A model generated the notes under the pieces. The model saw only the letters and a list, made by a program, of their open reading frames with translations, was not told the origin of the DNA and searched no databases. A stretch of 64,000 nucleotides of DNA, from the NCBI GenBank assembly GCA_934096945.1, contig CAKOND010000005.1, positions 18,088 to 82,087 of the forward strand, read 5' to 3'. How positions within the stretch are numbered: position 1 is the first letter of the stretch; each line of letters starts with the position of its first letter. Below are positions 6,064-64,000 of this stretch, in pieces. This DNA comes from an uncultured Bacilli bacterium (GTDB lineage: Bacteria; Bacillota_I; Bacilli_A; RF39; UBA660). The position numbers were made by a program, and so were the translations under genes.

Positions 6064-6156
6064 GGAGTAGTACTCAAGAGGCTGAAGAGGGATCCCTGCT
6101 AAGGATTTAGGTCGGCGAATGCTGGCGCGGAGGTTCAAATCCTCTCTACTCCGCCA
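6064..6156 (+). tRNA. tRNA-Ser (anticodon GCU)
   Basis: GGAGTAG acceptor, anticodon stem GATCC/GGATT with loop CUGCUAA, long variable arm, GGTTCAAATCC T-loop, encoded CCA. Confidence 0.9.
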
Positions 6157-6427: not shown

Positions 6428-6527
6428 AAAAAAATGAGCTTTCCCCCGACTAAAGGAACCCACAAGGCAAGCTTGCTGGTATGTAATTTACATATCCTTT
6501 AGTAACTCGGCGAACTACTAACTCACC
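6428..6527 (-). ncRNA. candidate structured small RNA (~100 nt), unknown family
   Basis: A minus-strand promoter TTGACA-17-TATTAT (6534-6562) lies upstream. In the RNA, CUAAAGGA pairs with UCCUUUAG, UUCGCCGA with UCGGGGGA, and UGAG-UU with AAGCUCA. The RNA ends in a U7 tract. Confidence 0.3.
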
Positions 6528-6714: not shown

Positions 6715-6791
6715 TGGTGACCCGTACGGGATTTGAACCCATGTATGCATGCGTGAAAGGCATGTGTGTTAAACCGCTTCACCAACGGGCC
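6715..6791 (-). tRNA. tRNA-Glu (anticodon UUC)
   Basis: rc reads GGCCCGTTGGTGAAGCGG...CATGC-CTTTCAC-GCATG...GGTTCAAATCCCGTACGGGTCACCA. Confidence 0.9.
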
Positions 6792-6799
6792 ATACTTAA

Positions 6800-6876
<77 letters not shown>

Positions 6877-8858: not shown

Positions 8859-9151
8859 AGTTTTATTCCTTCTTTAATGTGTTCAAGTCCACATTCTATT
8901 ATTATTTTAATATGATTATCAGCAATACTATAATATATTACTTGTCCTTCTTTTCTAGTTTTAACTAAATTAGTACTTCTTAAATAGCTTAACTGGTGAG
9001 ATACAGCTGATGCACTTACTTTTATTTTGTTTGATATATCACCAACAGAGGTTTCGTTTTCAAGTAATACTTCAAGTATTCTAAGTCTTGTTGTGTCACT
9101 AAATACTTTAAAGAACTCACTTAATTCATTAATTATTTTAATATCTTCCAT
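8855..9151 (-). CDS. ArsR/SmtB family metalloregulator
   Basis: 98 aa. FKVFSDTTRLRILEVL ... SASAVSHQLSYLR winged-HTH pattern. Confidence 0.9.
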   Translation of the reverse strand: MEDIKIINELSEFFKVFSDTTRLRILEVLLENETSVGDISNKIKVSASAVSHQLSYLRSTNLVKTRKEGQVIYYSIADNHIKIIIECGLEHIKEGIKL

Positions 9152-9242: not shown

Positions 9243-10265
9243 CTAAACTATTTTTTTAATATATCTACATTTTGGGTAATTATTGCATCCCATGAAAGGG
9301 CCATATTTTCCACTTCTTTTAACCAATGTTCCTCCACATCTTGGACAAACATCATTAGTTTCAAAATCTTCTTTAGTTTTATCATTTTTTCCACTATTAC
9401 ATCTATCACATAAAGTTTGTAAATTACTCATGATAGTCTTTCCACCTTTGGATACTGGAATAATATGATCAACCTCAAGTTTTGCACCATCCTTCGATGT
9501 TATTCCACATTTTTGACAAGTAAAATTATCTCTTTTTAAAACATTGTATCTGATATCATCATTCATAATTTTTCTTTCTTGCCTTTTAGTTACTTCATAC
9601 TTATTACCATTTTCCCATTCTTTATAAAGTTCTAATAATTCGTAATAATTTCTAAATCCGGTTCTTCTCTCATGAACATTACCGCCATTACTTTTATAAT
9701 ATGCGTCTAAATAAATTTTTATTAAAAAATCTTTTTTAGTATAAATTACCTTTTTCAGCACATTTTTTTCTATTCTTTTGTATGTTTTATCAGAATATTT
9801 AGTATTATTTACTGACTCTTGCTCTAAAATTTTCGCTACATTCTTCTCATACTCATCAAGCAAAGAAATATTGTATATTGAATTTTCAATATCTGTTCTA
9901 AGTCCTTTAATATTATTTTCAATATGATATTTAATGATATCATTACCATTAACTCTATCTAAACTTTTTCTAGAATACTCTCTTTGTATAATATCACGTT
10001 TTTTACATCTTATTTTTTTAAAATTTTTATTAAGTTCTTCAATTTGTTTTATTTTTTCACTATTATCTTTAATATTTTTTTCTCTTTTTTGGGATATTGT
10101 GTTTACTGTTATTAAAGAAATAGATATAGAAAGAATTAACGCAAGCATATTCAAATTTTCATGCATTTTATTATCAGTATTAAAATTTGATAATAAAGAA
10201 AATAATATTAAACACAATAAAAAACTAATCCCCGTTACTAATATAACTTTTTCCCATCTATTCAT
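9243..10265 (-). CDS. membrane-anchored HNH endonuclease with C-terminal topoisomerase-type C4 zinc ribbon
   Basis: Two N-terminal hydrophobic helices. HNH motif DHIIPVSKGGKT..SNLQTLCDRCNSGK. C-terminal CPRCGGTLVKRSGKYGPFMGCNNYPKC. Confidence 0.8.
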   Translation of the reverse strand: MNRWEKVILVTGISFLLCLILFSLLSNFNTDNKMHENLNMLALILSISISLITVNTISQKREKNIKDNSEKIKQIEELNKNFKKIRCKKRDIIQREYSRKSLDRVNGNDIIKYHIENNIKGLRTDIENSIYNISLLDEYEKNVAKILEQESVNNTKYSDKTYKRIEKNVLKKVIYTKKDFLIKIYLDAYYKSNGGNVHERRTGFRNYYELLELYKEWENGNKYEVTKRQERKIMNDDIRYNVLKRDNFTCQKCGITSKDGAKLEVDHIIPVSKGGKTIMSNLQTLCDRCNSGKNDKTKEDFETNDVCPRCGGTLVKRSGKYGPFMGCNNYPKCRYIKKIV

Positions 10266-25519: not shown

Positions 25520-25807
25520 CTACTTTTTTTGTTTGCTTATTTCATAAGCTTTTTCTATTTCAGCTTTTGATAATCCAGTGTAATTACTTATTTTGGCAAT
25601 ACTTTCATTTTCACGTATCATTTTCTTTGCAACAGCCATTTTTCCCTCATTTATTCCTTCATTTATACCAAGTGCCTTGCCTTTTTTCATGCCACGAGCT
25701 TCACTTTTTTCTTTTATTAAATATTCTCTAGCATTTTGCATCATTATATTTTCCTTTTCTGGTGTTAGATTCCAAAATGATTTAATTGAATTTTCATTTA
25801 ATAACAT
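25520..25807 (-). pseudogene. 3' fragment of a second Rpn-type nuclease gene (tandem partial copy)
   Basis: It encodes MLLNENSIKSFWNLTPEKENIMMQNAREYLIKEKSEARG..., identical to residues ~223-260 of the upstream full-length gene, then a divergent tail. It has no N-terminal nuclease domain. Confidence 0.6.
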
Positions 25808-25828
25808 AAGTTTATTTGCACACTCCTT
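25657..25828. repeat. 172-bp near-identical direct repeat, copy 1 (period 284 bp)
   Basis: By hand alignment it matches 25941-26112 with only a few mismatches. Confidence 0.85.
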
Positions 25829-25833
25829 ATTTT

Positions 25834-26757
25834 TTATTTCATAAGCTTTTCTATTTCAGCTCTTGATAATCCGGTTGCACTTTTAATAATATCTGCACAA
25901 ATATTCATTTTAACTAAATTCTTTGCAACATCTATCTTTCCTTCATTTATGCCAAGTGCCTTGCCTTTTTTTATGCCACGAGCTTCACTTTTTTCTTTTA
26001 TTAAATATTCTCTAGCATTTTGCATCATTATATTTTCCTTTTCTGGTGTTAGATTCCAAAATGATTTAATTGAATTTTCATTTAATAACATAAGTTTATT
26101 TGCACACTCCTTCACTTCTGGGTCATCTACACTATCTGCATATATAATTATGTCATCTTTATTTCTTAATGAAATTAGTGTTAATAGCGACCCTTTCATA
26201 TTTTCTTTAGCAACATTATCATACCATACTTTTTTATAATTATCAAGATTTACATGCATAAATCTCAAATTAAGTAATATCTTTTTATACTCTTCTGGCA
26301 TATTTTCACTATCTATTATTAATCCTCTTTCTAATCCCATATTATAGTTTAAAGAGATATGAACAAATTTTGTTATTGTATCAAATCTTTCACCAACTTT
26401 TGTAAACTGTGAATAAAAACTAAAGAAAAAGCAATTATTTCTTACTATTGTTTCTTCACCCCATGATGTATTAAGTTCCATATGAATCATTTGCCCATTT
26501 GATTCTACGAGTAAATCTAATCTTTTAGTCCTTTCCTCAGTATTTTGTACTGCTAGTTCTGGTGACATTATTTTTATTACTTTAGTCTTTTCTTTAGTTA
26601 CTTCACTTATGAGTCTTTCTAAAAGATGATAATCCTCATTTTTAACTACTTCTTCACTACAAAAAATAGCTTTAAATACCCTATCATAGTAAAAGGCATA
26701 AAATTCTTGTTCTTCATTTTTATATTTCACTTTTTTAATTGTTGCAACGTTTTGCAT
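25834..26757 (-). CDS. Rpn family recombination-promoting nuclease / PD-(D/E)XK putative transposase
   Basis: YDRVFKAIF..., RLDLLVESNGQMIHMELN (D...D/E.K-like core) and a C-terminal helical tail typical of YhgA/Rpn-like proteins. Confidence 0.7.
   Translation of the reverse strand: MQNVATIKKVKYKNEEQEFYAFYYDRVFKAIFCSEEVVKNEDYHLLERLISEVTKEKTKVIKIMSPELAVQNTEERTKRLDLLVESNGQMIHMELNTSWGEETIVRNNCFFFSFYSQFTKVGERFDTITKFVHISLNYNMGLERGLIIDSENMPEEYKKILLNLRFMHVNLDNYKKVWYDNVAKENMKGSLLTLISLRNKDDIIIYADSVDDPEVKECANKLMLLNENSIKSFWNLTPEKENIMMQNAREYLIKEKSEARGIKKGKALGINEGKIDVAKNLVKMNICADIIKSATGLSRAEIEKLMK
25941..26112. repeat. 172-bp near-identical direct repeat, copy 2
   Basis: See copy 1. Confidence 0.85.
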
Positions 26758-32830: not shown

Positions 32831-34618
32831 CTAATTTATTATGATTGGGTCTTCAGCTGTACCTTGGCCTGATTTATATGCCGTTGAAGATGAGAGACTG
32901 AAGGACGGGCGCACTCCATAGATGCCGTCCACACCGTCGTAGTTCACGAAACCATCGTAGTACACACCGAACGCATGGTACGAACCGCCCGCAGCACGGG
33001 AAATAGTCCATTCCAAGACTCCTCCATATAACCAATTTTCTCCCTTCGAAAATCTATAATCCTTTGTTGCATCAGTATTATTAAATCCAACCAATGTCCA
33101 CGCTCTTGGTCCTGCCGCATAATAATAATCACTTACATACATCAATCCTATTTTTGCTCTATATTCTGCTTTTCCATCTGTTGTATTTGTTGTTACTGCA
33201 TTTGTTATTTCATTTTGATATGCTACTGATGGTGTTTTTGAAGCTATATTTTCAAATGTATTTCCTCCAACTTTCCAGGTTGTTGTTGCTATTTTTTTTG
33301 CCCATTCTGTTCCAATGTTATTTAAAAAATTTGTATTTAAATTTACTTTATTTAAATTACTTTCACTCCATGTATTTTTTGCTGCAATATTCCAGAAATA
33401 TAATGAATTACTTGCTGGACTTTCTCCTTGTTCTCCACTAAAGTAAGATGAATATTCTTGTGAAAAAACTCCATCTGTTCCTAGTAAACTTGATTTTGCG
33501 TAATCCCATTTGATTAGTTTTACATTATTTCCAAATACTCCAATTATTCTATATAAATTTTCTGTTGGACATGGACTTGATGTCGAGCCAAAACATACAA
33601 AGTTATTTACATTATCTTTTGTCAAATATCCTTTTTCTACTGCTTTATTTAATGTTTCTTTATATGTTTGATACTGTGTTGTATCTCCCTTTATTAAATA
33701 ATAATGTGCTTGTGATGCATCGCATTCATAACCTACATATTGTTTCGTTCCATTACAATAAAAATCTATTAATGCTGTTGTTACTGTATTATTATATCCT
33801 ATCATCATTGTTGCTCCGGTTGCTTTTCCTGTTTCCGTTAAGACATAATCTCCGCCTGCATATCTGTAACTATTGTCACCTGCTCCGTTTGTGAGACTAC
33901 TATCATGATAATAGATATTATTAGCTCCTTGAGTTCCTGTATATAGTGATTTTACATGATCAGCTAATAAGTTTATCTTTTCCTTTTGTATCATCACTTT
34001 TGCACTCATACTTTTTCCTGCATTACCATTTTGATTAGCATCATAGTTTACAAATGTTAATTTTATATTCCACTTTTCTTCTTTACTTGGACTTGCTGTT
34101 ATTTCTCTATTATTAAATAGTGTTATAAGTCCATTCTTATTTGTTATATCATATCCTGATACTAATGCTCCACTTCCATCTGTTACTGATGTATGTGTTA
34201 ATCCTGATATATCTGTTACTTCTGTTCCTGCACTATTTGTAACTGTTAATATTAATTCTGGTGTACTTTCATTTATTGAATATGTAAATGAATTATTAGA
34301 AATATTTAAATATACATAATAATGTTCCGTCGCAGTATTTGTCTTATTATTTGCTGTAAGAGTTGCTTTTGCAAAAGTGCTTCCAACTGCATTACCTTTG
34401 CCACTTGCAAATGAACTTTGATCAGCATAGATACCTATATCATCACCTGTTGTAAAAGTAAATACATCTGTTGTATATGTTGTTACATTTAAGTTTGCTG
34501 ATGTTGGTTCTCCACCTTGGGCAGTAAAATATGCATATGTTGCTCCGATTAATAACAACATAAATGTTGTTATTGCTATTACACTTAATATTATTGGTTT
34601 ATTTTTATTATTTTCCAT
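32831..34618 (-). CDS. secreted/surface protein, paralog A; C-terminal lectin-like module with hypervariable cassette (putative DGR target)
   Basis: 595 aa. The N-terminal hydrophobic segment + GATYAYFTAQ resembles SipW-type (TasA/camelysin-class) signal peptides. The N-terminal ~215 aa and the C-terminal module are homologous to ORF 60697..62100. The C-terminus reads EWTISR...GVRPSFSL. Confidence 0.75.
   Translation of the reverse strand: MENNKNKPIILSVIAITTFMLLLIGATYAYFTAQGGEPTSANLNVTTYTTDVFTFTTGDDIGIYADQSSFASGKGNAVGSTFAKATLTANNKTNTATEHYYVYLNISNNSFTYSINESTPELILTVTNSAGTEVTDISGLTHTSVTDGSGALVSGYDITNKNGLITLFNNREITASPSKEEKWNIKLTFVNYDANQNGNAGKSMSAKVMIQKEKINLLADHVKSLYTGTQGANNIYYHDSSLTNGAGDNSYRYAGGDYVLTETGKATGATMMIGYNNTVTTALIDFYCNGTKQYVGYECDASQAHYYLIKGDTTQYQTYKETLNKAVEKGYLTKDNVNNFVCFGSTSSPCPTENLYRIIGVFGNNVKLIKWDYAKSSLLGTDGVFSQEYSSYFSGEQGESPASNSLYFWNIAAKNTWSESNLNKVNLNTNFLNNIGTEWAKKIATTTWKVGGNTFENIASKTPSVAYQNEITNAVTTNTTDGKAEYRAKIGLMYVSDYYYAAGPRAWTLVGFNNTDATKDYRFSKGENWLYGGVLEWTISRAAGGSYHAFGVYYDGFVNYDGVDGIYGVRPSFSLSSSTAYKSGQGTAEDPIIIN
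32900..33010 (-). repeat. putative DGR variable region VR-A (GC-rich, adenine-depleted cassette)
   Basis: See findings. It aligns gap-free with 60766-60876, and differences are almost exclusively at codon positions 1-2. Confidence 0.65.
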
Positions 34619-44042: not shown

Positions 44043-44939
44043 CTACGCCTTTTTCCTCGCTAAAGCATATGCTTGTTCTATTAGATTTCCATTTTTTATT
44101 TTTTGGATTTGGTCACTTAATACCGCTTTTGTATAAAATACTGCTTCGCTAAGTTCTACGCCTTTATCAACAAATTGATACTTTTCTCTCATAAGTTGCC
44201 ATAATTCTTCATGCCTTTTAACAAATTCCTTATTTAAAAAAGCTGCACTTACTTCATTTAAATTCATTTTATACATAAGAAGCATAGTTTCAAAATATAA
44301 AGCAAATTTATCTGAATCATAATCTTTACCAAAAAGCATATAAATATCATAAAAGTCTTTAACTCTCGTATTTAAAACATCTTCTTTGGTATTATGGGCA
44401 ATAATGTAAAGTTTTTCTGCAATATGTTCTTCAAAAGATGGTGTATTTATATAAAATTTTTCATCACCTGTAAATAATGGTTCTACTGCTTTAAATTGAG
44501 TTTCAAAAATAACACGATTATTTTCTTTGTAATCAATTGGAACAGGTACTACCATTTCTTTACTACCTTCATACTTCACTTTAGCAATAACTGGTATTTT
44601 ATATACACCATTTTTTGTTTGTCTTGGTAAACTAGAAAGATCAAAAGATACGGTGTTACTATACATATCATAAATTGCTGCAAATAAAAGGTTAAGTGGT
44701 ATTTCATGTGATTTAATTGATGATAAATCTATATCTAGTACTGGTCTTGATAAGTTTCCTAAATGAACATACTGACTAAAACTTCCCTTAACTACTAGGT
44801 CACCATTATTTATTAAAGCAAGTTTAGAAAGTAATAATCTTGCATAATATGTGGTATAGGCAGCCATATATGAAATACCTAATCTATTAGCCTCTTTTTT
44901 CATATAAGCCTTTTCTTGATCCAAGTTATTAAATTTCAT
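44043..44939 (-). CDS. AbiEii/AbiGii-type nucleotidyltransferase (DUF1814) family protein
   Basis: LVVKGSFSQYVHLGNLSRPVLDIDLSS matches the vlKGG.a......R.t.DiDl NTase motif. ~300 aa. Confidence 0.65.
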   Translation of the reverse strand: MKFNNLDQEKAYMKKEANRLGISYMAAYTTYYARLLLSKLALINNGDLVVKGSFSQYVHLGNLSRPVLDIDLSSIKSHEIPLNLLFAAIYDMYSNTVSFDLSSLPRQTKNGVYKIPVIAKVKYEGSKEMVVPVPIDYKENNRVIFETQFKAVEPLFTGDEKFYINTPSFEEHIAEKLYIIAHNTKEDVLNTRVKDFYDIYMLFGKDYDSDKFALYFETMLLMYKMNLNEVSAAFLNKEFVKRHEELWQLMREKYQFVDKGVELSEAVFYTKAVLSDQIQKIKNGNLIEQAYALARKKA

Positions 44940-58116: not shown

Positions 58117-60438
58117 TCAATTGGTTTTGCTATCTTCAAGTATTACTTCATCATCTTTTGTTTTAAAACATATATCTTTAAATTTACAATAAGTACATGC
58201 TATATTTTTACCACCAAGTACCTTGGGATTAATATTAAAATTACCTTCCACAATATTCTTTATAACATCATCTATAATCTCATTTACTTTAATTATTAAA
58301 TTATCCATCTCTTCATTAGATAACACTTTACTAGTACTATAAAAAGAACCATCTTTCTTAAATCTTAAACCTTTTATCATTTTACTATCTTTATAGTTAC
58401 TATCAAGAAGACTCATTATAGTTTCATTACTATTGGTATAGCCAGATAGTCTTAAGTTTTCTTTCTTTAAAGTTTCTAAAGACTTAACTTTATCTCTATT
58501 TAAAACATTATTAAGTACTCTTTCTATATAAAAACCTGCAATAATAGAGTCTTTAAATCTATCACTTGTTTTAAGTAAATATAAATATATTGGAAGTTGC
58601 ATATTAAGACCATATTCTAAAGTATCAAGTTTTATATTCTTATCCCCAGTTTTATAATCTACTACTGCTATTACTTCTTTATCATTATATTTAGTGGTCA
58701 TAACTTTATCTATAAAACCTTTAAAGTTCACCTTTACTCCATTATACTTTTTTTCCACATTAAGTTCTGTTTCAAATAAATAATCATTTAAACTACTTGT
58801 CTTTCTTTGTTCTTTTAAATATTTAAGTAAAAAGTCTATTTCTTTAGCAAGAATATGAATATAAAATAGTTCTCTTTCTTTAAATTCAAAATCTAATTCT
58901 TTAATAAATAAACTTATCTCTTTTTCAATATCTATTTCTTTATTTATACCAATCTCTAATATATGATGCACAATCTGTCCAATTATAGTTTTAAATGTTT
59001 CTTCAAAAACATCAAGATTTAATACTTTAGATAAATAATATCTAAAACTACATTCATTAAAATTTTCAAGACTTGTATATGAAAGTGTTACTCCTTCTTC
59101 AAGTCTTTCTTTAAGTAAAGTATTATCTACACTAGTAAATTTATTATTATATTCTCTATATGGAATATTTAGATTATTTTGATATATTTTTAAATACTTA
59201 CTTTCATCATTATATTTATATAAATTATCTAAATCCATAGCATACTCAAGTTCACTATATTTTTTGCTGAAAGACACTTTTTTATCTATATCTATTTTCT
59301 TTACCTCAAGTCCTAAATCTTCAATTAAGCTTGATGGATATAAAGCTCCATTATCGCCATGCATAGAATAACTTATACTTAAACTTGGAATATTATATAT
59401 TAAATTTATAACATTATCTTTATTTATCTTATTTATTTCTAAAGATGTATCAAGTCCTAATTTATTCTTTATATTATCACTTAAAAAGTCATCATCTTTT
59501 TCTACTTTAGGATAACTACCTATATTAAAGCCAAGTAAAAACACATAGTCACTTTCACTATAAACCTCTTCAAGAGAATGTAACTCTATAGCATTTTTAT
59601 ATATAGTATTACTAACTTTAGCTTGTTTTAAATCCCTTTTAATAAACTCTTTTCTTATATTTTTATTCTTTACTTGTACAGACTTATTTATAATAGTAAT
59701 AAGTTCATTTACATTACTATACTTACCACTTAAATATTCTATTACTTCATCTATTTCTTTATTATCATAAAATTTCAAAAATTCTTTAGAAATACTTAAA
59801 CTTAAAAAAGATGTACTACTTTCTATATTAATTGGTACTTTAAATAATTTAAAATAGTATTCTAAATGTTTATAATATTCTTTACTTGCAATTAGTTTGA
59901 TATTATTAATATTTATCCCTTTTTTAAGTAATTTCTTTATTTCAATAATTACATGCTCTACTTCTTCACATATATCTTTTGCTTCATATACACATGGCTT
60001 ATAACTATTTTTTTCTAATTTTTCTAATTTATAGTTAATACCATCTAAAATTAATTTTTCTTCTTTAGTTAATACATCTTTACCATAGATGGTAACTTTT
60101 TGATTAAGCATATATTTTCTAAATTTATCATCATATATAAGTAAATTTTGTTCATCTAATTCTTTTCTTAATTCATTTAAAAACTTTACTTTTTCATCAT
60201 CAATATCTTTTAAAAAGTATAAATTATCTAAATAAATCTTAGCTATATTAATATTTACATTATATTTATTTATAATATATTCTAAAGCTCTATCATCATA
60301 ATCAAAGAATAACTTTTTTTTAAGTTCTTTAAACCCTAAAAATTTATTATTATTAAATTTCTTTTCCATATTTATTTTCTTCAATAATTCTATTTTATTA
60401 AATTCATTAGTTATTACTACATTCATAATATACCTCAT
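58117..60438 (-). CDS. addB: AddB/RexB-like nuclease subunit (short, 773 aa)
   Basis: C-terminal PD-(D/E)XK + Fe-S pattern: CSFRYYL ... VDYKTGDK ... CTYCKFKDIC. It has no Walker A and is shorter than Bacillus AddB. The start could be the ATG at 60426. Confidence 0.8.
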   Translation of the reverse strand: MRYIMNVVITNEFNKIELLKKINMEKKFNNNKFLGFKELKKKLFFDYDDRALEYIINKYNVNINIAKIYLDNLYFLKDIDDEKVKFLNELRKELDEQNLLIYDDKFRKYMLNQKVTIYGKDVLTKEEKLILDGINYKLEKLEKNSYKPCVYEAKDICEEVEHVIIEIKKLLKKGININNIKLIASKEYYKHLEYYFKLFKVPINIESSTSFLSLSISKEFLKFYDNKEIDEVIEYLSGKYSNVNELITIINKSVQVKNKNIRKEFIKRDLKQAKVSNTIYKNAIELHSLEEVYSESDYVFLLGFNIGSYPKVEKDDDFLSDNIKNKLGLDTSLEINKINKDNVINLIYNIPSLSISYSMHGDNGALYPSSLIEDLGLEVKKIDIDKKVSFSKKYSELEYAMDLDNLYKYNDESKYLKIYQNNLNIPYREYNNKFTSVDNTLLKERLEEGVTLSYTSLENFNECSFRYYLSKVLNLDVFEETFKTIIGQIVHHILEIGINKEIDIEKEISLFIKELDFEFKERELFYIHILAKEIDFLLKYLKEQRKTSSLNDYLFETELNVEKKYNGVKVNFKGFIDKVMTTKYNDKEVIAVVDYKTGDKNIKLDTLEYGLNMQLPIYLYLLKTSDRFKDSIIAGFYIERVLNNVLNRDKVKSLETLKKENLRLSGYTNSNETIMSLLDSNYKDSKMIKGLRFKKDGSFYSTSKVLSNEEMDNLIIKVNEIIDDVIKNIVEGNFNINPKVLGGKNIACTYCKFKDICFKTKDDEVILEDSKTN

Positions 60439-60466
60439 TAATTAATACATTAATATTATATCATTA
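60421..60466. repeat. 46-bp direct repeat DR1 (addB start codon + leader)
   Basis: ATTCATAATATACCTCATTAATTAATACATTAATATTATATCATTA matches 62891-62936 at 44/46 positions. Weaker homology continues to ~60528 / ~62970. Confidence 0.9.
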
Positions 60467-60473
60467 AGCTACT

Positions 60474-60503
60474 TAAAAAGATAATGTTTTTTGCATTATC
60501 TTT
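60474..60503 (-). terminator. Rho-independent terminator of paralog-B transcript
   Basis: On the minus strand: AGATAATG-caaaaaa-CATTATCT followed by TTTTT. This lies in the 31-nt stretch that is absent from DR2. Confidence 0.7.
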
Positions 60504-60544
60504 GAAATTTTGAAACTCTACGTAATTATAATGGGGTTACTTAT

Positions 60545-60696
60545 AAGTATGTTGATAACTCGGCGCCGCTGCCTCACCTCGCACAAACCGCGAGACTCGG
60601 CAGTTGGGTCTTCCACCACGCCAATCTCTTCACTTCGCATTATTTTGCACCCGGCCTGACCTAGCACGCGGACGCGCTAGACAGGCATGTCCGATC
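60545..60696 (-). other. GC-rich (~60% by hand count) structured non-coding element 3' of paralog B, unknown function
   Basis: Hairpins CTAGC(A)CG-cgga-CG(C)GCTAG (60661-60680) and CTGCC-tcac-CTCGC-acaaacc-GCGAG-actc-GGCAG (60569-60603). There is no long ORF and no similarity to the VR. Confidence 0.5.
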
Positions 60697-62100
60697 CTAG
60701 TTTACCACAATCGGATCAGCGGCTGTGCCGCTTCCCGATGCATAGTTCACGGAAGATGAAAGATTGAAGGACGGCCGCACCGCAGTGCTGCTGTACACAA
60801 AGTTGTTGTACACGTAACCACCGAAGTACACAAAGAACGCACTGATCGAAATGTCCGCACTACGGGAAATAGTCCATTCTGTAGCACCTATATACATCCA
60901 ATTTGCACTTTTGATGTCTGTTCCATCATAATCATAAAAATTTGTTATCCATGCACTTGGGGCTGCTGCAAATCCATAATCACTTGCATACATTAAGCCT
61001 ATTTTTTTATTTACACTTGGTGATGAATTAATTTCATTTTGATATACTGCTTTGGCTGGTTGGCTAATGCTAATATTATTAAATCCTCCAACCTTCCATG
61101 TTGTTTCTGCTATATTACCTTTTGTTGTTTCATCAAATGCATTTAAAAAATCATTATTTAAATATGTATTTAGACTTGATGTTGACCATGTATTATTACC
61201 ATTACCATCCCAGGCTTTTCCTCCTACAGATGTTGATTTGATTAATTTTACTTGGTTTCCAAATACTCCTATTATTCTGTACAAATTATCTGTTGGACAT
61301 GGTGTTGTACTTCCAAAACATACAAAGTTATTTACACTTTCACTTGCTCCGGCATATCTATAACTATTGTCACCTGCTCCATTTGTTAGTGTACTAGTAT
61401 GATGATAAATATTATTTGCCCCTTGAGTTCCTGTAAATTTACTTATAACATAACCTGCTAATAATTGTTTTTTTTGTATCATCACTTTTGCACTCATGCT
61501 CTTACCAGCATTAGCACTTTGACTTGCATCATAGTTTACAAATGTTACTTTAATATTCCATTTTTCTTCTTTACTTGGGTTTGCAGTTATTTCTCTATTA
61601 TTAAAGAGTGTTATAAGTCCTGATTTATTTGTTATATCATAACCTGATACTTGAGTTCCATTTGCTCCAGTTACGATAACATGATTAAGTGTACTTATAT
61701 TGGTTACTTCATTACCACTACTATCTGTTACTGTCATTATTATTTCTGGTGTATTTTCATTTATTGAATATGTAAATGTATTACTTTCTATATTCAAATA
61801 CAAGTAATAATGTTCTGTTGCTGTATTTGTTTTATTATTTGCTGTGAGCATTGCACTTGCATATGTACTTCCTGTTTGATTTCCTTTTCCACTTGCAAAA
61901 TTATCTTGATTTATACTAAATGATATTGCACTACCACTTGAGAATGTAAATGTATCCACAGTATTTGCATTAACTTTGATGTCCGCTACTGCTGGATCCC
62001 CTACTTGAGCTTGAAAATATGCATATGTTGCAGTTACTACTGTGAGCGCTAATGCTACTATTGCTACTATACTTATTATTTTTGCCTTTTTATTTTCCAT
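60697..62100 (-). CDS. secreted/surface protein, paralog B; C-terminal lectin-like module with hypervariable cassette (putative DGR target)
   Basis: 467 aa. The signal segment + TATYAYFQAQ and residues ~70-215 are near-identical to paralog A. It lacks A's ~130-aa central insert. The C-terminus reads EWTISR...AVRPSFNL. Confidence 0.75.
   Translation of the reverse strand: MENKKAKIISIVAIVALALTVVTATYAYFQAQVGDPAVADIKVNANTVDTFTFSSGSAISFSINQDNFASGKGNQTGSTYASAMLTANNKTNTATEHYYLYLNIESNTFTYSINENTPEIIMTVTDSSGNEVTNISTLNHVIVTGANGTQVSGYDITNKSGLITLFNNREITANPSKEEKWNIKVTFVNYDASQSANAGKSMSAKVMIQKKQLLAGYVISKFTGTQGANNIYHHTSTLTNGAGDNSYRYAGASESVNNFVCFGSTTPCPTDNLYRIIGVFGNQVKLIKSTSVGGKAWDGNGNNTWSTSSLNTYLNNDFLNAFDETTKGNIAETTWKVGGFNNISISQPAKAVYQNEINSSPSVNKKIGLMYASDYGFAAAPSAWITNFYDYDGTDIKSANWMYIGATEWTISRSADISISAFFVYFGGYVYNNFVYSSTAVRPSFNLSSSVNYASGSGTAADPIVVN
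60766..60876 (-). repeat. putative DGR variable region VR-B
   Basis: Gap-free codon alignment with 32900-33010; see findings. Confidence 0.65.
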
Positions 62101-62259
62101 AATTTACTTATCCATCCTTTAACAATATCACACTGGATATTCTCTTTACTATATACTATATTTTAAACAACAAAAAAATAAAAAAAAACATCATATTAAC
62201 GCAAAATTAAAATTTGGCCTAAATATCTTTTCTATAATATTATCATATAAACAATATAC

Positions 62260-62892
62260 TTATAAATTTTCAATTAAAAATACCAACACCTGCAAATAAA
62301 CTTTAAAAGTATTTTCATCTACAAATCCAAGTAATGTTTTTTCTGATAATTTAACAAAGAAAATTCTTTTGATTTTGCATTAGGTTCAATCACAGAATAT
62401 TGAAATTTTTTTGATGCATTTTGAAGTTGCAAAGATAATGAATTATATATTTTTCTAATTTTTAAAGTTTCTAAAGAATTGTTAACATGATTGTTCATAC
62501 CATTTAAAAAAAGTTAAGTCATGCAATAATTCAGAAACACTATCAGGCATACCACCAGAAAGTAAATATTCTTTATAATATGATAAAGCTTTATCATGTA
62601 TAAGCCCCATAGCTTTATTTTTATCAAAACATTCTTTAATTCTATCAAGTAATGCATCTTGATTAAAAGTCATTAAGAATTCTTCAAAATCTATGGGATA
62701 CATATCAATTCTAGAAACTTTACCTACTGGAAAAGGTCTATTTAATCTTGATAATTTAACCCCGAGTAAAGAACCAGCACATATAATTCTTACATTACTA
62801 TGTTTTTCATTGAAAAATTTCAGTTCTGAAATTAATTCTTCATATTTAAAATTATTTTTTATAATATTTAAATTCATTTTTACAAAATTCAT
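62260..62892 (-). pseudogene. decayed AAA-ATPase/DUF4143-family gene (no P-loop N-terminus; frameshifted C-terminal part)
   Basis: ORF 62482..62892 holds the middle region (..ICAGSLLGVKL...FPVGKVSRIDMYPIDFEEFL...GGMP). Downstream, other frames still read ..SKKFQYSVIEPNAKSKEFS.. and ..FKVYLQVLVF.. . Confidence 0.55.
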
Positions 62893-62936
62893 TCATAATA
62901 TACCTCATTAATTAATACATAAATATTATGTCATTA
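62891..62936. repeat. 46-bp direct repeat DR2 (second copy of addB start/leader)
   Basis: See DR1. It includes a second ATGAGGTATATTATGAAT that opens only a short ORF. Confidence 0.9.
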
Positions 62937-63085: not shown

Positions 63086-64000
63086 TTATTTTTCACTTTT
63101 GTTTTTAAATTGTAACATTATAGGTGTTCCATCAAAGTCAATATTATTTCTAATTTGATTTTCTAAATATCTTTCATAACTAAAATGAACTAATCCTTTA
63201 TTATTTACTGAGAATGTAAATTTTGGTGGACATGTTCCAGTTTGACTTACAAAATATATTTTAAGTCTTTTGCCTTTATATGATGGGGGTTCATGCATGC
63301 TTACTGCTTCCATTATAATGTTATTTAAAACTGATGTTTTTACTTCTTTTCTGTTATTATTATAAGCATTTATTACCTCAGGCATAAGTCCCGATAATCT
63401 TTTTTTAGTCTTAGCACTTAAAAATACAGTGTGAGCATAAGGTATGAATTGGAATTCATTTTTTATATTCTCTTTCCATTTTCTTATATCACTATCTGGA
63501 TTATTTATTGTATCCCACTTATTTACACATATAACTATACCTTTTCCAGCATCTAAAGCATAAGATGCAATATGTTTATCGTGCTCAATAATACCAGTTG
63601 ATGCATCAATTACTAAAACACATACATCACTTCTATCAATTGCTTTAAGACTTCTAATTAAACTATATTTTTCAACACTTTCATAAATTTTACCTTTTTT
63701 ACGCATTCCAGCAGTATCAATTACCGTTATATCTTCATGATTATATTTAAATTTAGTATCAATTGCATCTCTAGTTGTACCCGCTACATCACTTACAATA
63801 GCTCTTTCTTCATTTAATATAGCATTAATTAAACTACTTTTTCCTACATTTGGTCTACCTATTATACAAAATTTAAGAGAACTATCTTCTATTTTTACTT
63901 CTTCTGATAAATCACTAGTAATTGTATTTAATAGGGTATCAAAACCTATGTTGTGAGATGCACTGACTGCCATTAGATCACTAAATCCAAGTTCGTAGTA
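63086..64000 (-). CDS. der: ribosome-associated GTPase Der/EngA (3' two-thirds; continues beyond right edge)
   Basis: Second G domain GRPNVGKSSL, DTAGMRKK, NKWD, and a KH-like C-terminus. The frame is open past the track Met at 63973 (..ELGFSDLMAVSASH..). Confidence 0.9.
   Translation of the reverse strand, partial: YYELGFSDLMAVSASHNIGFDTLLNTITSDLSEEVKIEDSSLKFCIIGRPNVGKSSLINAILNEERAIVSDVAGTTRDAIDTKFKYNHEDITVIDTAGMRKKGKIYESVEKYSLIRSLKAIDRSDVCVLVIDASTGIIEHDKHIASYALDAGKGIVICVNKWDTINNPDSDIRKWKENIKNEFQFIPYAHTVFLSAKTKKRLSGLMPEVINAYNNNRKEVKTSVLNNIIMEAVSMHEPPSYKGKRLKIYFVSQTGTCPPKFTFSVNNKGLVHFSYERYLENQIRNNIDFDGTPIMLQFKNKSEK

Follow-up and report, generated by a model that had tools for sequence, protein, structure and literature searches.

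The question raised by this locus is whether two paralogous genes, here called A and B, are the targets of a working DGR or carry what such a system left behind. In the window, by which we mean the whole 64,000-nt stretch of DNA that was analysed, both genes end in a stretch with the same scaffold of invariant codons and different residues at the NNY codons in between, and the original prediction took this as one template serving two targets. The C-terminal stretches of A and B were clearly produced by a DGR, and we consider it probable that the cassette, of the MutS-like (MSL) type, has been lost from the region and that the VRs have since become fixed in the species, which would make A and B relic targets.

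Gene B begins with an N-terminal hydrophobic anchor or signal, continues with a beta-rich middle and ends in a DUF6273 domain that bears VR-B (PF19789, E=4.7e-8, residues 295-448); about 8000 homologues of the gene are present in gut metagenomes. Gene A is related to it through the paralogy blocks D1, D2, D4, D9 and D12, and its DUF6273 match is weak and under the Pfam cutoff (E=0.0035). An NCBIfam search with both proteins gave nothing useful. The amino-acid strings quoted in the original prediction are the translations of these two ORFs. A third paralogue, gene C (523 aa), was seen about 5 kb past the window end on L001, which reaches 8.1 kb beyond that end and brings the DNA covered to about 72 kb. 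Its VR has the same scaffold as A and B (FADNSNGAFNVYYIGRVINYGVYSRCGVRPSF), its tail is GC-rich, and a DDE transposase gene lies after it. The neighbourhood of A and B includes the housekeeping genes valS, addAB and der, with no phage genes nearby. The coordinates of the features discussed here are given in Table 1.

Table 1. Positions in the window of genes A and B, their VRs and the DNA following gene B
Feature	Position	Strand	Basis
Gene A, 595 aa, paralogue of B with a longer middle; VR-A in the C-terminal domain	32831..34618	minus	ORF list
VR-A, scaffold as in VR-B	32905..33004	minus	TR comparison, GC
Gene B, 467 aa	60697..62100	minus	ORF list
VR-B, template-repeat homologue (ATTTCC + 94 nt ending ...CCGT)	60771..60870	minus	TR comparison
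GC-rich 3′ end of VR-B, GCGGTGCGGCCGT, IMH-like border	60771..60783	minus	codon-by-codon VR/TR listing
Last 23 codons and stop of gene B, GC-rich cassette-type tail	60697..60770	minus	GC 0.50
Hairpin after the stop codon, GCCTGTCTAGCGCG-TCCG-CGTGCTAGGTCAGGC, 4-nt loop	60654..60686	minus	conserved in cassettes
GC-rich leader remnant; in intact cassettes joins target to TR	60550..60696	minus	GC 0.59

DUF6273 has been modelled as C-type-lectin-like (PMC10743442), and in the targets of Faecalibacterium prophages the VR maps to the C-terminal end of this domain (PMC11792537). Taken with the published models, the Pfam match of gene B supports a lectin-like fold indirectly. The AlphaFold2 models obtained here were of low confidence, both for full-length protein B (59 homologues, pLDDT 50.2) and for the C-terminal 241 aa (61 rows, pLDDT 47.4), and a profile search of PDB sequences returned no match.

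The 15-mer GAAGGACGGNCGCAC occurs in the window at 32900 and 60766 only, with 0.01 matches expected by chance. The distance between the two sites is 27,866 nt. Over the 94 aligned nucleotides that run from CGT to CCGT, A and B differ at 27 sites, which are distributed over the first, second and third codon positions as 12, 13 and 2, respectively. The corresponding numbers are 25, 34 and 67 in five ungapped blocks from other parts of these genes, and 6, 6 and 14 in the 23-codon tail. GC amounts to 51% in VR-B and 58% in VR-A, compared with about 31% in the gene bodies, and in the window as a whole it is mostly 0.2-0.35 per 500 nt.

By placing A at every site that differs between A and B, the original prediction had arrived at a complete template. 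The first 33 nt of this template, AATGCGGACAATTCGAACAATGCGTTCAATGTG, were searched in one genome per species of bacteria and archaea and were found exactly in four related genomes, those of Clostridium sp. CAG:609, Firmicutes bacterium CAG:460 and two uncultured Bacilli MAGs. In three of the four, the template is located 3′ of a DUF6273-type target gene and 5′ of four ORFs, which code for a protein with a match to MutS domain I (MutS_I, 124-145 aa), an Avd-like protein (bAvd-like, 114-122 aa), a reverse transcriptase (RVT_1, 359-363 aa) with the IGNMTSQ motif typical of DGR RTs and, after the RT, a small protein of the orf79 type (79-84 aa). The cassette order in these relatives is target, hairpin, GC-rich leader, TR, MutS-like gene, Avd, RT and small ORF, and intact cassettes were seen before Tex (CAG:609 type) and between an HTH gene and an amidase gene (HGM10828 type). 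L006, the fourth genome, shows decay, in that the first half of the TR has become joined to the tail of a different target gene and there is no RT behind it. The search with the inferred TR thus found its match in related genomes, but the 64-kb window holds just the two VR copies, with neither a third copy of the scaffold nor a TR, and TRs were found only in other genomes.

As the reference we used the TR of L019-L024, the most widespread cassette (the collection contains 457 blocks with its RT, P0163); this TR comes from a related genome and not from the genome of the window. The full predicted template agrees with it at 87 of 94 bases. Four of the seven misses are sites where both VRs share one mutated base (TAC three times, and AGC), and the other three are at the 3′ end, where GAA and CGA had been guessed. 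Compared with the same TR, VR-B is changed at 18 of the 34 adenine sites and at 0 of the 60 other sites (Fisher p=2e-10), VR-A at 22 of 34 and 3 of 60 (Fisher p=5e-10), and VR-C at 20 of 34 and 4 of 60 (Fisher p=5e-8). The three non-adenine changes of VR-A, at positions 83, 84 and 90, all fall within its last 12 nt.

Ordinary paralogue divergence, gene conversion or selection on a surface loop, with no retroelement involved, could be put forward for such a pattern on the grounds that paralogues exchange segments, that the B and C alleles differ sharply between strains and that the C-terminus of gene C in L010 is AT-rich. The first two of these processes had been judged a poor explanation in the original prediction, and none of the three fares better here, since the changes are limited to adenines of the template (p about 1e-8 to 1e-10) and to codon positions 1-2, the A-filled sequence turns up next to RTs as an actual TR, and the VRs are GC islands whose borders match those of the homology with the TR. 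We give this alternative next to no weight, and it is effectively refuted. At the level of sequence, the DGR origin of VR-A and VR-B is confirmed, and the best explanation for the C-terminal ~100 nt of A, B and C is that they are the product of adenine-mutagenic retrohoming. One template for two targets is plausible as history, given the non-adenine mismatches of 0/60 in VR-B and 3/60 in VR-A; a working system, on the other hand, is not supported by what follows.

The 3′ border of the VRs, which had been proposed to be IMH-like, was correctly placed, as the identity between VR and TR stops at GCGGTGCGGCCGT. Past this point VR-B and the TR diverge at once, VR-B continuing with CCTTCAAT and the TR with AGACCTTT; VR-A reads GGAGTGCGCCCGT at the corresponding border, and the 3′ end of the TR is GCGGTGCGGCCGTAGACC. 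The tail of gene B is GC-enriched, unlike that of gene A (50% and 41%, respectively), as had been remarked. The remark was an understatement, since the GC-rich stretch of B extends 147 nt beyond the stop codon at 59% GC. In gene A, the GC island stops where the homology with the TR stops; its tail and downstream DNA (GC 0.13 downstream) are AT-rich as in the host, and neither hairpin nor leader follows on the 3′ side.

The hairpin located after the stop codon of gene B was found 3′ of the target gene in every cassette type, and was absent after both A and C. Its outer stem shows compensatory changes, with CCTG/CAGG in the window, CTTG/CAAG in L008 and TTTG/CAAA in L009. The hairpin belongs to the MFE fold, and the RNA fold of tail plus leader has z = -3.8, with three distinct sequence types available for covariation. 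A terminator scan of positions 60300-62300 found none, which means that the hairpin does not qualify as a classical intrinsic terminator. Rfam has no family that matches the GC-rich leader, whether the whole window is searched at gathering thresholds or positions 60400-60900 at E<=10.

Aligned over 220 nt with the corresponding sequence of the intact CAG:609-type cassettes L011-L017 (target tail plus leader), the tail and leader of gene B show 92.8% identity, and the alignment of the leader with L007 and L011-L017 ends exactly at 60550. The break is therefore located between 60550 and 60549, just beyond which lies unrelated DNA of 20% GC, and then addB. In the intact cassette of L012, the TR begins about 80 nt beyond the end of the homology (8927 to 9008). 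Strain L010, with flanks 96-98% identical, has the same leader junction as the window, and three distinct deletion junctions were seen in all: that of the window and L010, that of L025-L027 and that of L033/L034. A scan of JGI metagenomes for the deletion junction of the B locus gave 0 matches, and the neighbouring AAA_14 fragment, used as a probe for strains carrying this locus, retrieved only short contigs that break inside gene B. When the cassette flanks of L009, L011, L012, L019 and L020 were compared with the window for synteny, the target genes alone matched, so no 'empty site' can be read from them. That a cassette formerly lay exactly between B and addB could not be shown; intact cassettes occupy other contexts.

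The genes for the machinery itself were searched for in the window, L001 and L010. Using tblastn, the RT, Avd, MSL and orf79 proteins of two cassette types gave nothing in these sequences (best E 0.19), and neither Avd nor MSL had a match below E=0.19. The RTs of three relatives reached a best E-value of 1.1 in the same sequences, and a Pfam scan of 10 window ORFs detected no RVT_1. The absence of TR, Avd and RT from the window and the adjoining 8 kb, the truncated leader and the fixation of the VRs across strains, described below, together argue against the working DGR of the original prediction.

The comparison of strains, in which different NNY codons on identical scaffolds had been expected, also came out against that prediction, the variable residues of VR-A and VR-C being identical between strains. 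The protein A variants P0121 (window), P0122 (contig of L010) and P0123 (contig of L001) differ at 1-2% of their residues, none of which lie in the VR; four strain lineages, L003-L005 among them, share one and the same VR-A. L003 and L004 differ from the window at 24 positions over the 7 kb that surround gene A, and the gene itself has no mismatch. For protein C, the variants P0124-P0127 are 98% identical overall, and VR-C is identical in all four. These identities are those of metagenome assemblies, which give the majority sequence and in which low-level VR heterogeneity is invisible.

Related cassettes that are active served as controls. In L011-L016, the RT and TR are 100% identical, and all five members that include the target gene (5/5) have distinct VRs, which differ at A sites only; between L012 and L015, the VRs differ and the 6-kb flank has 0 mismatches. 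In L019-L024, each VR carries 12-19 A-site changes and zero non-A changes. In contrast to these active relatives, VR-A and VR-C are frozen.

A cassette elsewhere in the genome, with its own TR and RT, might still diversify A, B and C in trans, one template acting on several remote targets. It is established that DGRs can act on remote targets and on more than one target (Wu et al. 2018, PMC5758913), VR-B retains the hairpin and the IMH-like end, and its non-A sites match the common TR perfectly. Diversification in trans of a target beside a decayed cassette is, in addition, what we see in the sister species L025-L027, whose DNA around valS is 83.5% identical to that of the window. Where the window has gene A, this species has a B-like target, and after it come the hairpin, the complete leader and no more than the first 19 nt of the TR, with a junction common to three strains that are about 99% identical to each other. 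The VRs of these strains differ at 22-25 sites, all of them A sites of the L019 TR, and the rest of the gene at 1-6 sites. Since these VRs still differ, the loss of the neighbouring cassette alone does not stop diversification, and this target is presumably rewritten by a cassette elsewhere in the genome. This case also shows that the truncated leader of gene B is by itself no proof; the argument for inactivity comes from the fixed VRs. For the species of the window, we regard continued diversification of all three genes in trans as quite unlikely. VR-A has stayed the same in the four strain lineages, and VR-C in the four protein variants, while other parts of the proteins changed; active relatives differ in every sample; the 72 kb covered contain no RT or TR; and A and C have neither the hairpin nor the leader.

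For gene B, the protein is a single sequence across three contigs with 100% identical flanks, a thin strain sample in which at least two strains are represented, since scaffold_611 of ERZ28613651 carries P0123. The gene B of L010, the one divergent strain in this sample, is a different allele, with 80% amino-acid identity to that of the window and a different VR; it also differs in the tail and at the non-A sites 7, 66 and 88 of the VR, and the DNA past the stop codon is near-identical. Considering that the whole gene, the tail and the non-A sites of the VR all differ, the sequences indicate that the difference between L001 and L010 at this locus is an allele replacement and not in-place mutagenesis. 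In L010, gene C has an ordinary AT-rich C-terminus without the scaffold. At both loci, B and C, the strains differ by the swapping of alleles and not through the action of a DGR.

These observations bear on a mixed state, in which a trans cassette would still act on VR-B, by means of its hairpin and partial leader, and VR-A and VR-C would be unrecognised and frozen. Such a state would agree with the hairpin being conserved in B only and with a B locus that differs, VR included, between L001 and L010, and also with evidence of freezing that is weak for B and at its strongest for A and C. We nevertheless find it unlikely, as the difference between L001 and L010 is the replacement of a whole allele and two strains with differing A genes have the same VR-B. 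VR-B is probably frozen as well.

Under the preferred reading, in which A and B are relic targets of a lost cassette, A, B and C would be DUF6273-type secreted or surface proteins, and the ancestral template would have been identical or near-identical to the TR still present in sister gut Bacilli. Gene B would descend from a cassette-proximal target, since its tail is of the cassette type and is still followed by the hairpin and by the initial 147 nt of the leader. The rest of its cassette may have been lost by in-place deletion, or the 3′ end of B may have arrived already truncated through paralogue recombination. Gene A would have been a remote target, overwritten by template cDNA, because its cassette-like GC is confined to the template-homologous stretch. 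The VRs would then be fossils of the last round of diversification, now fixed in the species. We infer the loss of the DGR across the whole genome, as well as the order of these events; it is possible that an intact or active cassette with its RT lies elsewhere in the genome, of which about 72 kb was seen.

A broader picture, which we offer as a tentative conjecture with some, if modest, chance of being right, is that of a hub-and-spoke DGR economy in this genus of small AT-rich gut Bacilli. In such an economy, paralogue recombination would shuffle the 3′ ends of targets together with their hairpin and leader, neighbouring cassettes would decay by nested deletions, and one surviving cassette would rewrite some of the orphaned targets in trans. 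The species of the window would be one in which the last cassette has just been lost, or one in which a distant cassette acts on VR-B only.

The DGR signature in a target gene, that is, an A-free scaffold, scrambled NNY codons and a GC island, can outlast the retroelement, and calling DGR activity from VR-like sequence alone leads to over-calling. Filling every variable site with A recovered a real template in other genomes, which makes it a way to tie orphan VRs to a cassette family. The sister species form a small natural series, from an intact and active cassette, through a decayed cassette whose target is diversified in trans, to a fully frozen state, and this series could help to define the cis elements that a remote target requires. 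Knowledge of the DGR mechanism is unchanged by these findings, which concern probable relics of a known type of system.

In the DGR of Bordetella phage BPP-1, the VR of Mtd is followed by the IMH and a hairpin, and the remaining elements are ordered avd-TR-brt. The position of the VR at the C-terminus of the target, the GC-rich IMH and the GC-rich hairpin with a 4-nt loop 3′ of the VR are shared with gene B. The hairpin of gene B is located about 85 nt past the end of the VR, after the 23-codon tail, whereas that of BPP-1 directly follows the IMH; the gene order is different as well, and the window has no RT.

MSL-containing DGRs have been described as 'Architecture D', which includes the DGR of Legionella pneumophila (Wu et al. 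2018, PMC5758913). The cassette of the relatives resembles this architecture in that the genes for a small protein like MutS domain I, an Avd-like protein and a DGR-type RT all lie 3′ of the target on a single strand, in its adenine-only substitutions and in a VR that ends in a GC-rich, IMH-like run. It departs from it in the order TR-MSL-Avd-RT, with a structured GC-rich leader of about 200 nt between target and TR, and in the extra ORF of 79-84 aa after the RT; in the window, only the target side is kept, and the TR, MSL, Avd and RT are absent.

In the Treponema denticola DGR (TvpA and its paralogues), as in the present case, a single TR has matches in several paralogous genes, located on the chromosome at distances of tens of kb, and the remote targets are recognised through differences of the A-to-N type only. 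The Treponema system has its RT and TR, and its targets are taken as live, whereas the VRs of A and C do not change from strain to strain and the 72 kb covered yielded neither RT nor TR. DUF6273 targets of DGRs are also known from gut phages, as tentaclins (PMC10743442) and in Faecalibacterium prophages (PMC11792537). Those targets are phage tail or receptor-binding proteins within prophage DGR cassettes, whereas A and B are chromosomal paralogues with an N-terminal anchor, located among valS, addAB and der.

In three sister-species loci (L025-L027; L025:11325-11790, the same locus in L026 and L027), the gene A position is occupied by a B-like target, downstream of which we found the conserved hairpin, then the GC-rich leader, and then a template repeat (TR) shortened to 19 nt. 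The variable region (VR) of this target remains hypervariable among strains that are ~99% identical; hypervariability despite a TR of only 19 nt implies that diversification occurs in trans. At two other sister-species loci, L033 and L034, the leader that follows the B-like target at the gene A position ends 20 nt beyond the junction of the window.

A related genome, MAG CAKORG01 (L006:2740-2960, minus strand), has the initial ~45 nt of the TR joined to a different target gene, of which the 3′ part and the tail are present; downstream of this fusion there is no reverse transcriptase. The arrangement is another route of cassette decay, through recombination of the TR with a downstream VR.

Based on the comparison of VR-B (60771-60870) with the L033 VR (L033:9330-9430), the same mutated bases are present at several template-adenine codons (TTT, TAC, GGT, TAC and TAC), and the tails of the two genes are identical. 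Together, these shared bases and tails suggest that both VRs descend from one previously mutated VR rather than from separate homing events.

Gene B lies in a 2.4-kb segment flanked by both copies of a 69-nt direct repeat, which span the 5′ UTR and initial codons of addB and of an ORF carrying an AAA_14 fragment. This repeat may be the footprint of an insertion of the gene B segment. The AAA_14 ORF, which adjoins gene B, resembles a truncated ATPase gene, judging from its profile match. Coordinates are listed in the table, together with those of other features of the window and of L001, the contig that runs past its end.

Features of the window and of contig L001
Feature	Position	Strand	Description
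69-nt direct repeat	60398-60466 and 62868-62936		86% identical
136-aa ORF	62482-62892	-	Pfam AAA_14 profile, C-terminal part only (positions 73-129 of 129)
Gene C	L001:3508-5079, ~5 kb past window position 64000		523 aa; third paralogue
Transposase gene	L001:5309-6499		DDE_Tnp_1; next after gene C
DUF3800-VII RNA	6428-6527	-	Rfam match, 61 bits (gathering score 36.2)
AbiEii-family toxin gene	44043-44939	-	adjoins infC, rpmI and rplT
340-aa protein	9243-10265	-	HNH endonuclease domain and topoisomerase-type zinc ribbon

Elsewhere in the window, the DUF3800-VII RNA match is flanked by a tRNA-Ser gene (6064-6156) and by tRNA-Glu/Ile genes (6715-6876). At 25654-26112, a 175-nt sequence occurs twice with a distance of 284 nt between the copies, which share 99% identity, and the break and overlap in the BLAST alignment indicate apparently one copy in strains L003 and L004. 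The pair looks like a recent tandem duplication, located 5′ of an uncharacterised 307-aa ORF.

The VR of gene C is built on the same scaffold as VR-A and VR-B, and the gene has a GC-rich tail but lacks the hairpin. The neighbouring transposase gene is missing in strain L010. Finally, the gene B homologues P0003-P0041 (478 aa) share a single fixed, non-scaffold C-terminal sequence, FTVNSIGAFEVGTSGYVAGLGSIVTDAHGVRPVF, in ~40 separate 90%-identity clusters. These proteins are an allele class of the gene B family without diversification, and this class is common among gut metagenomes.
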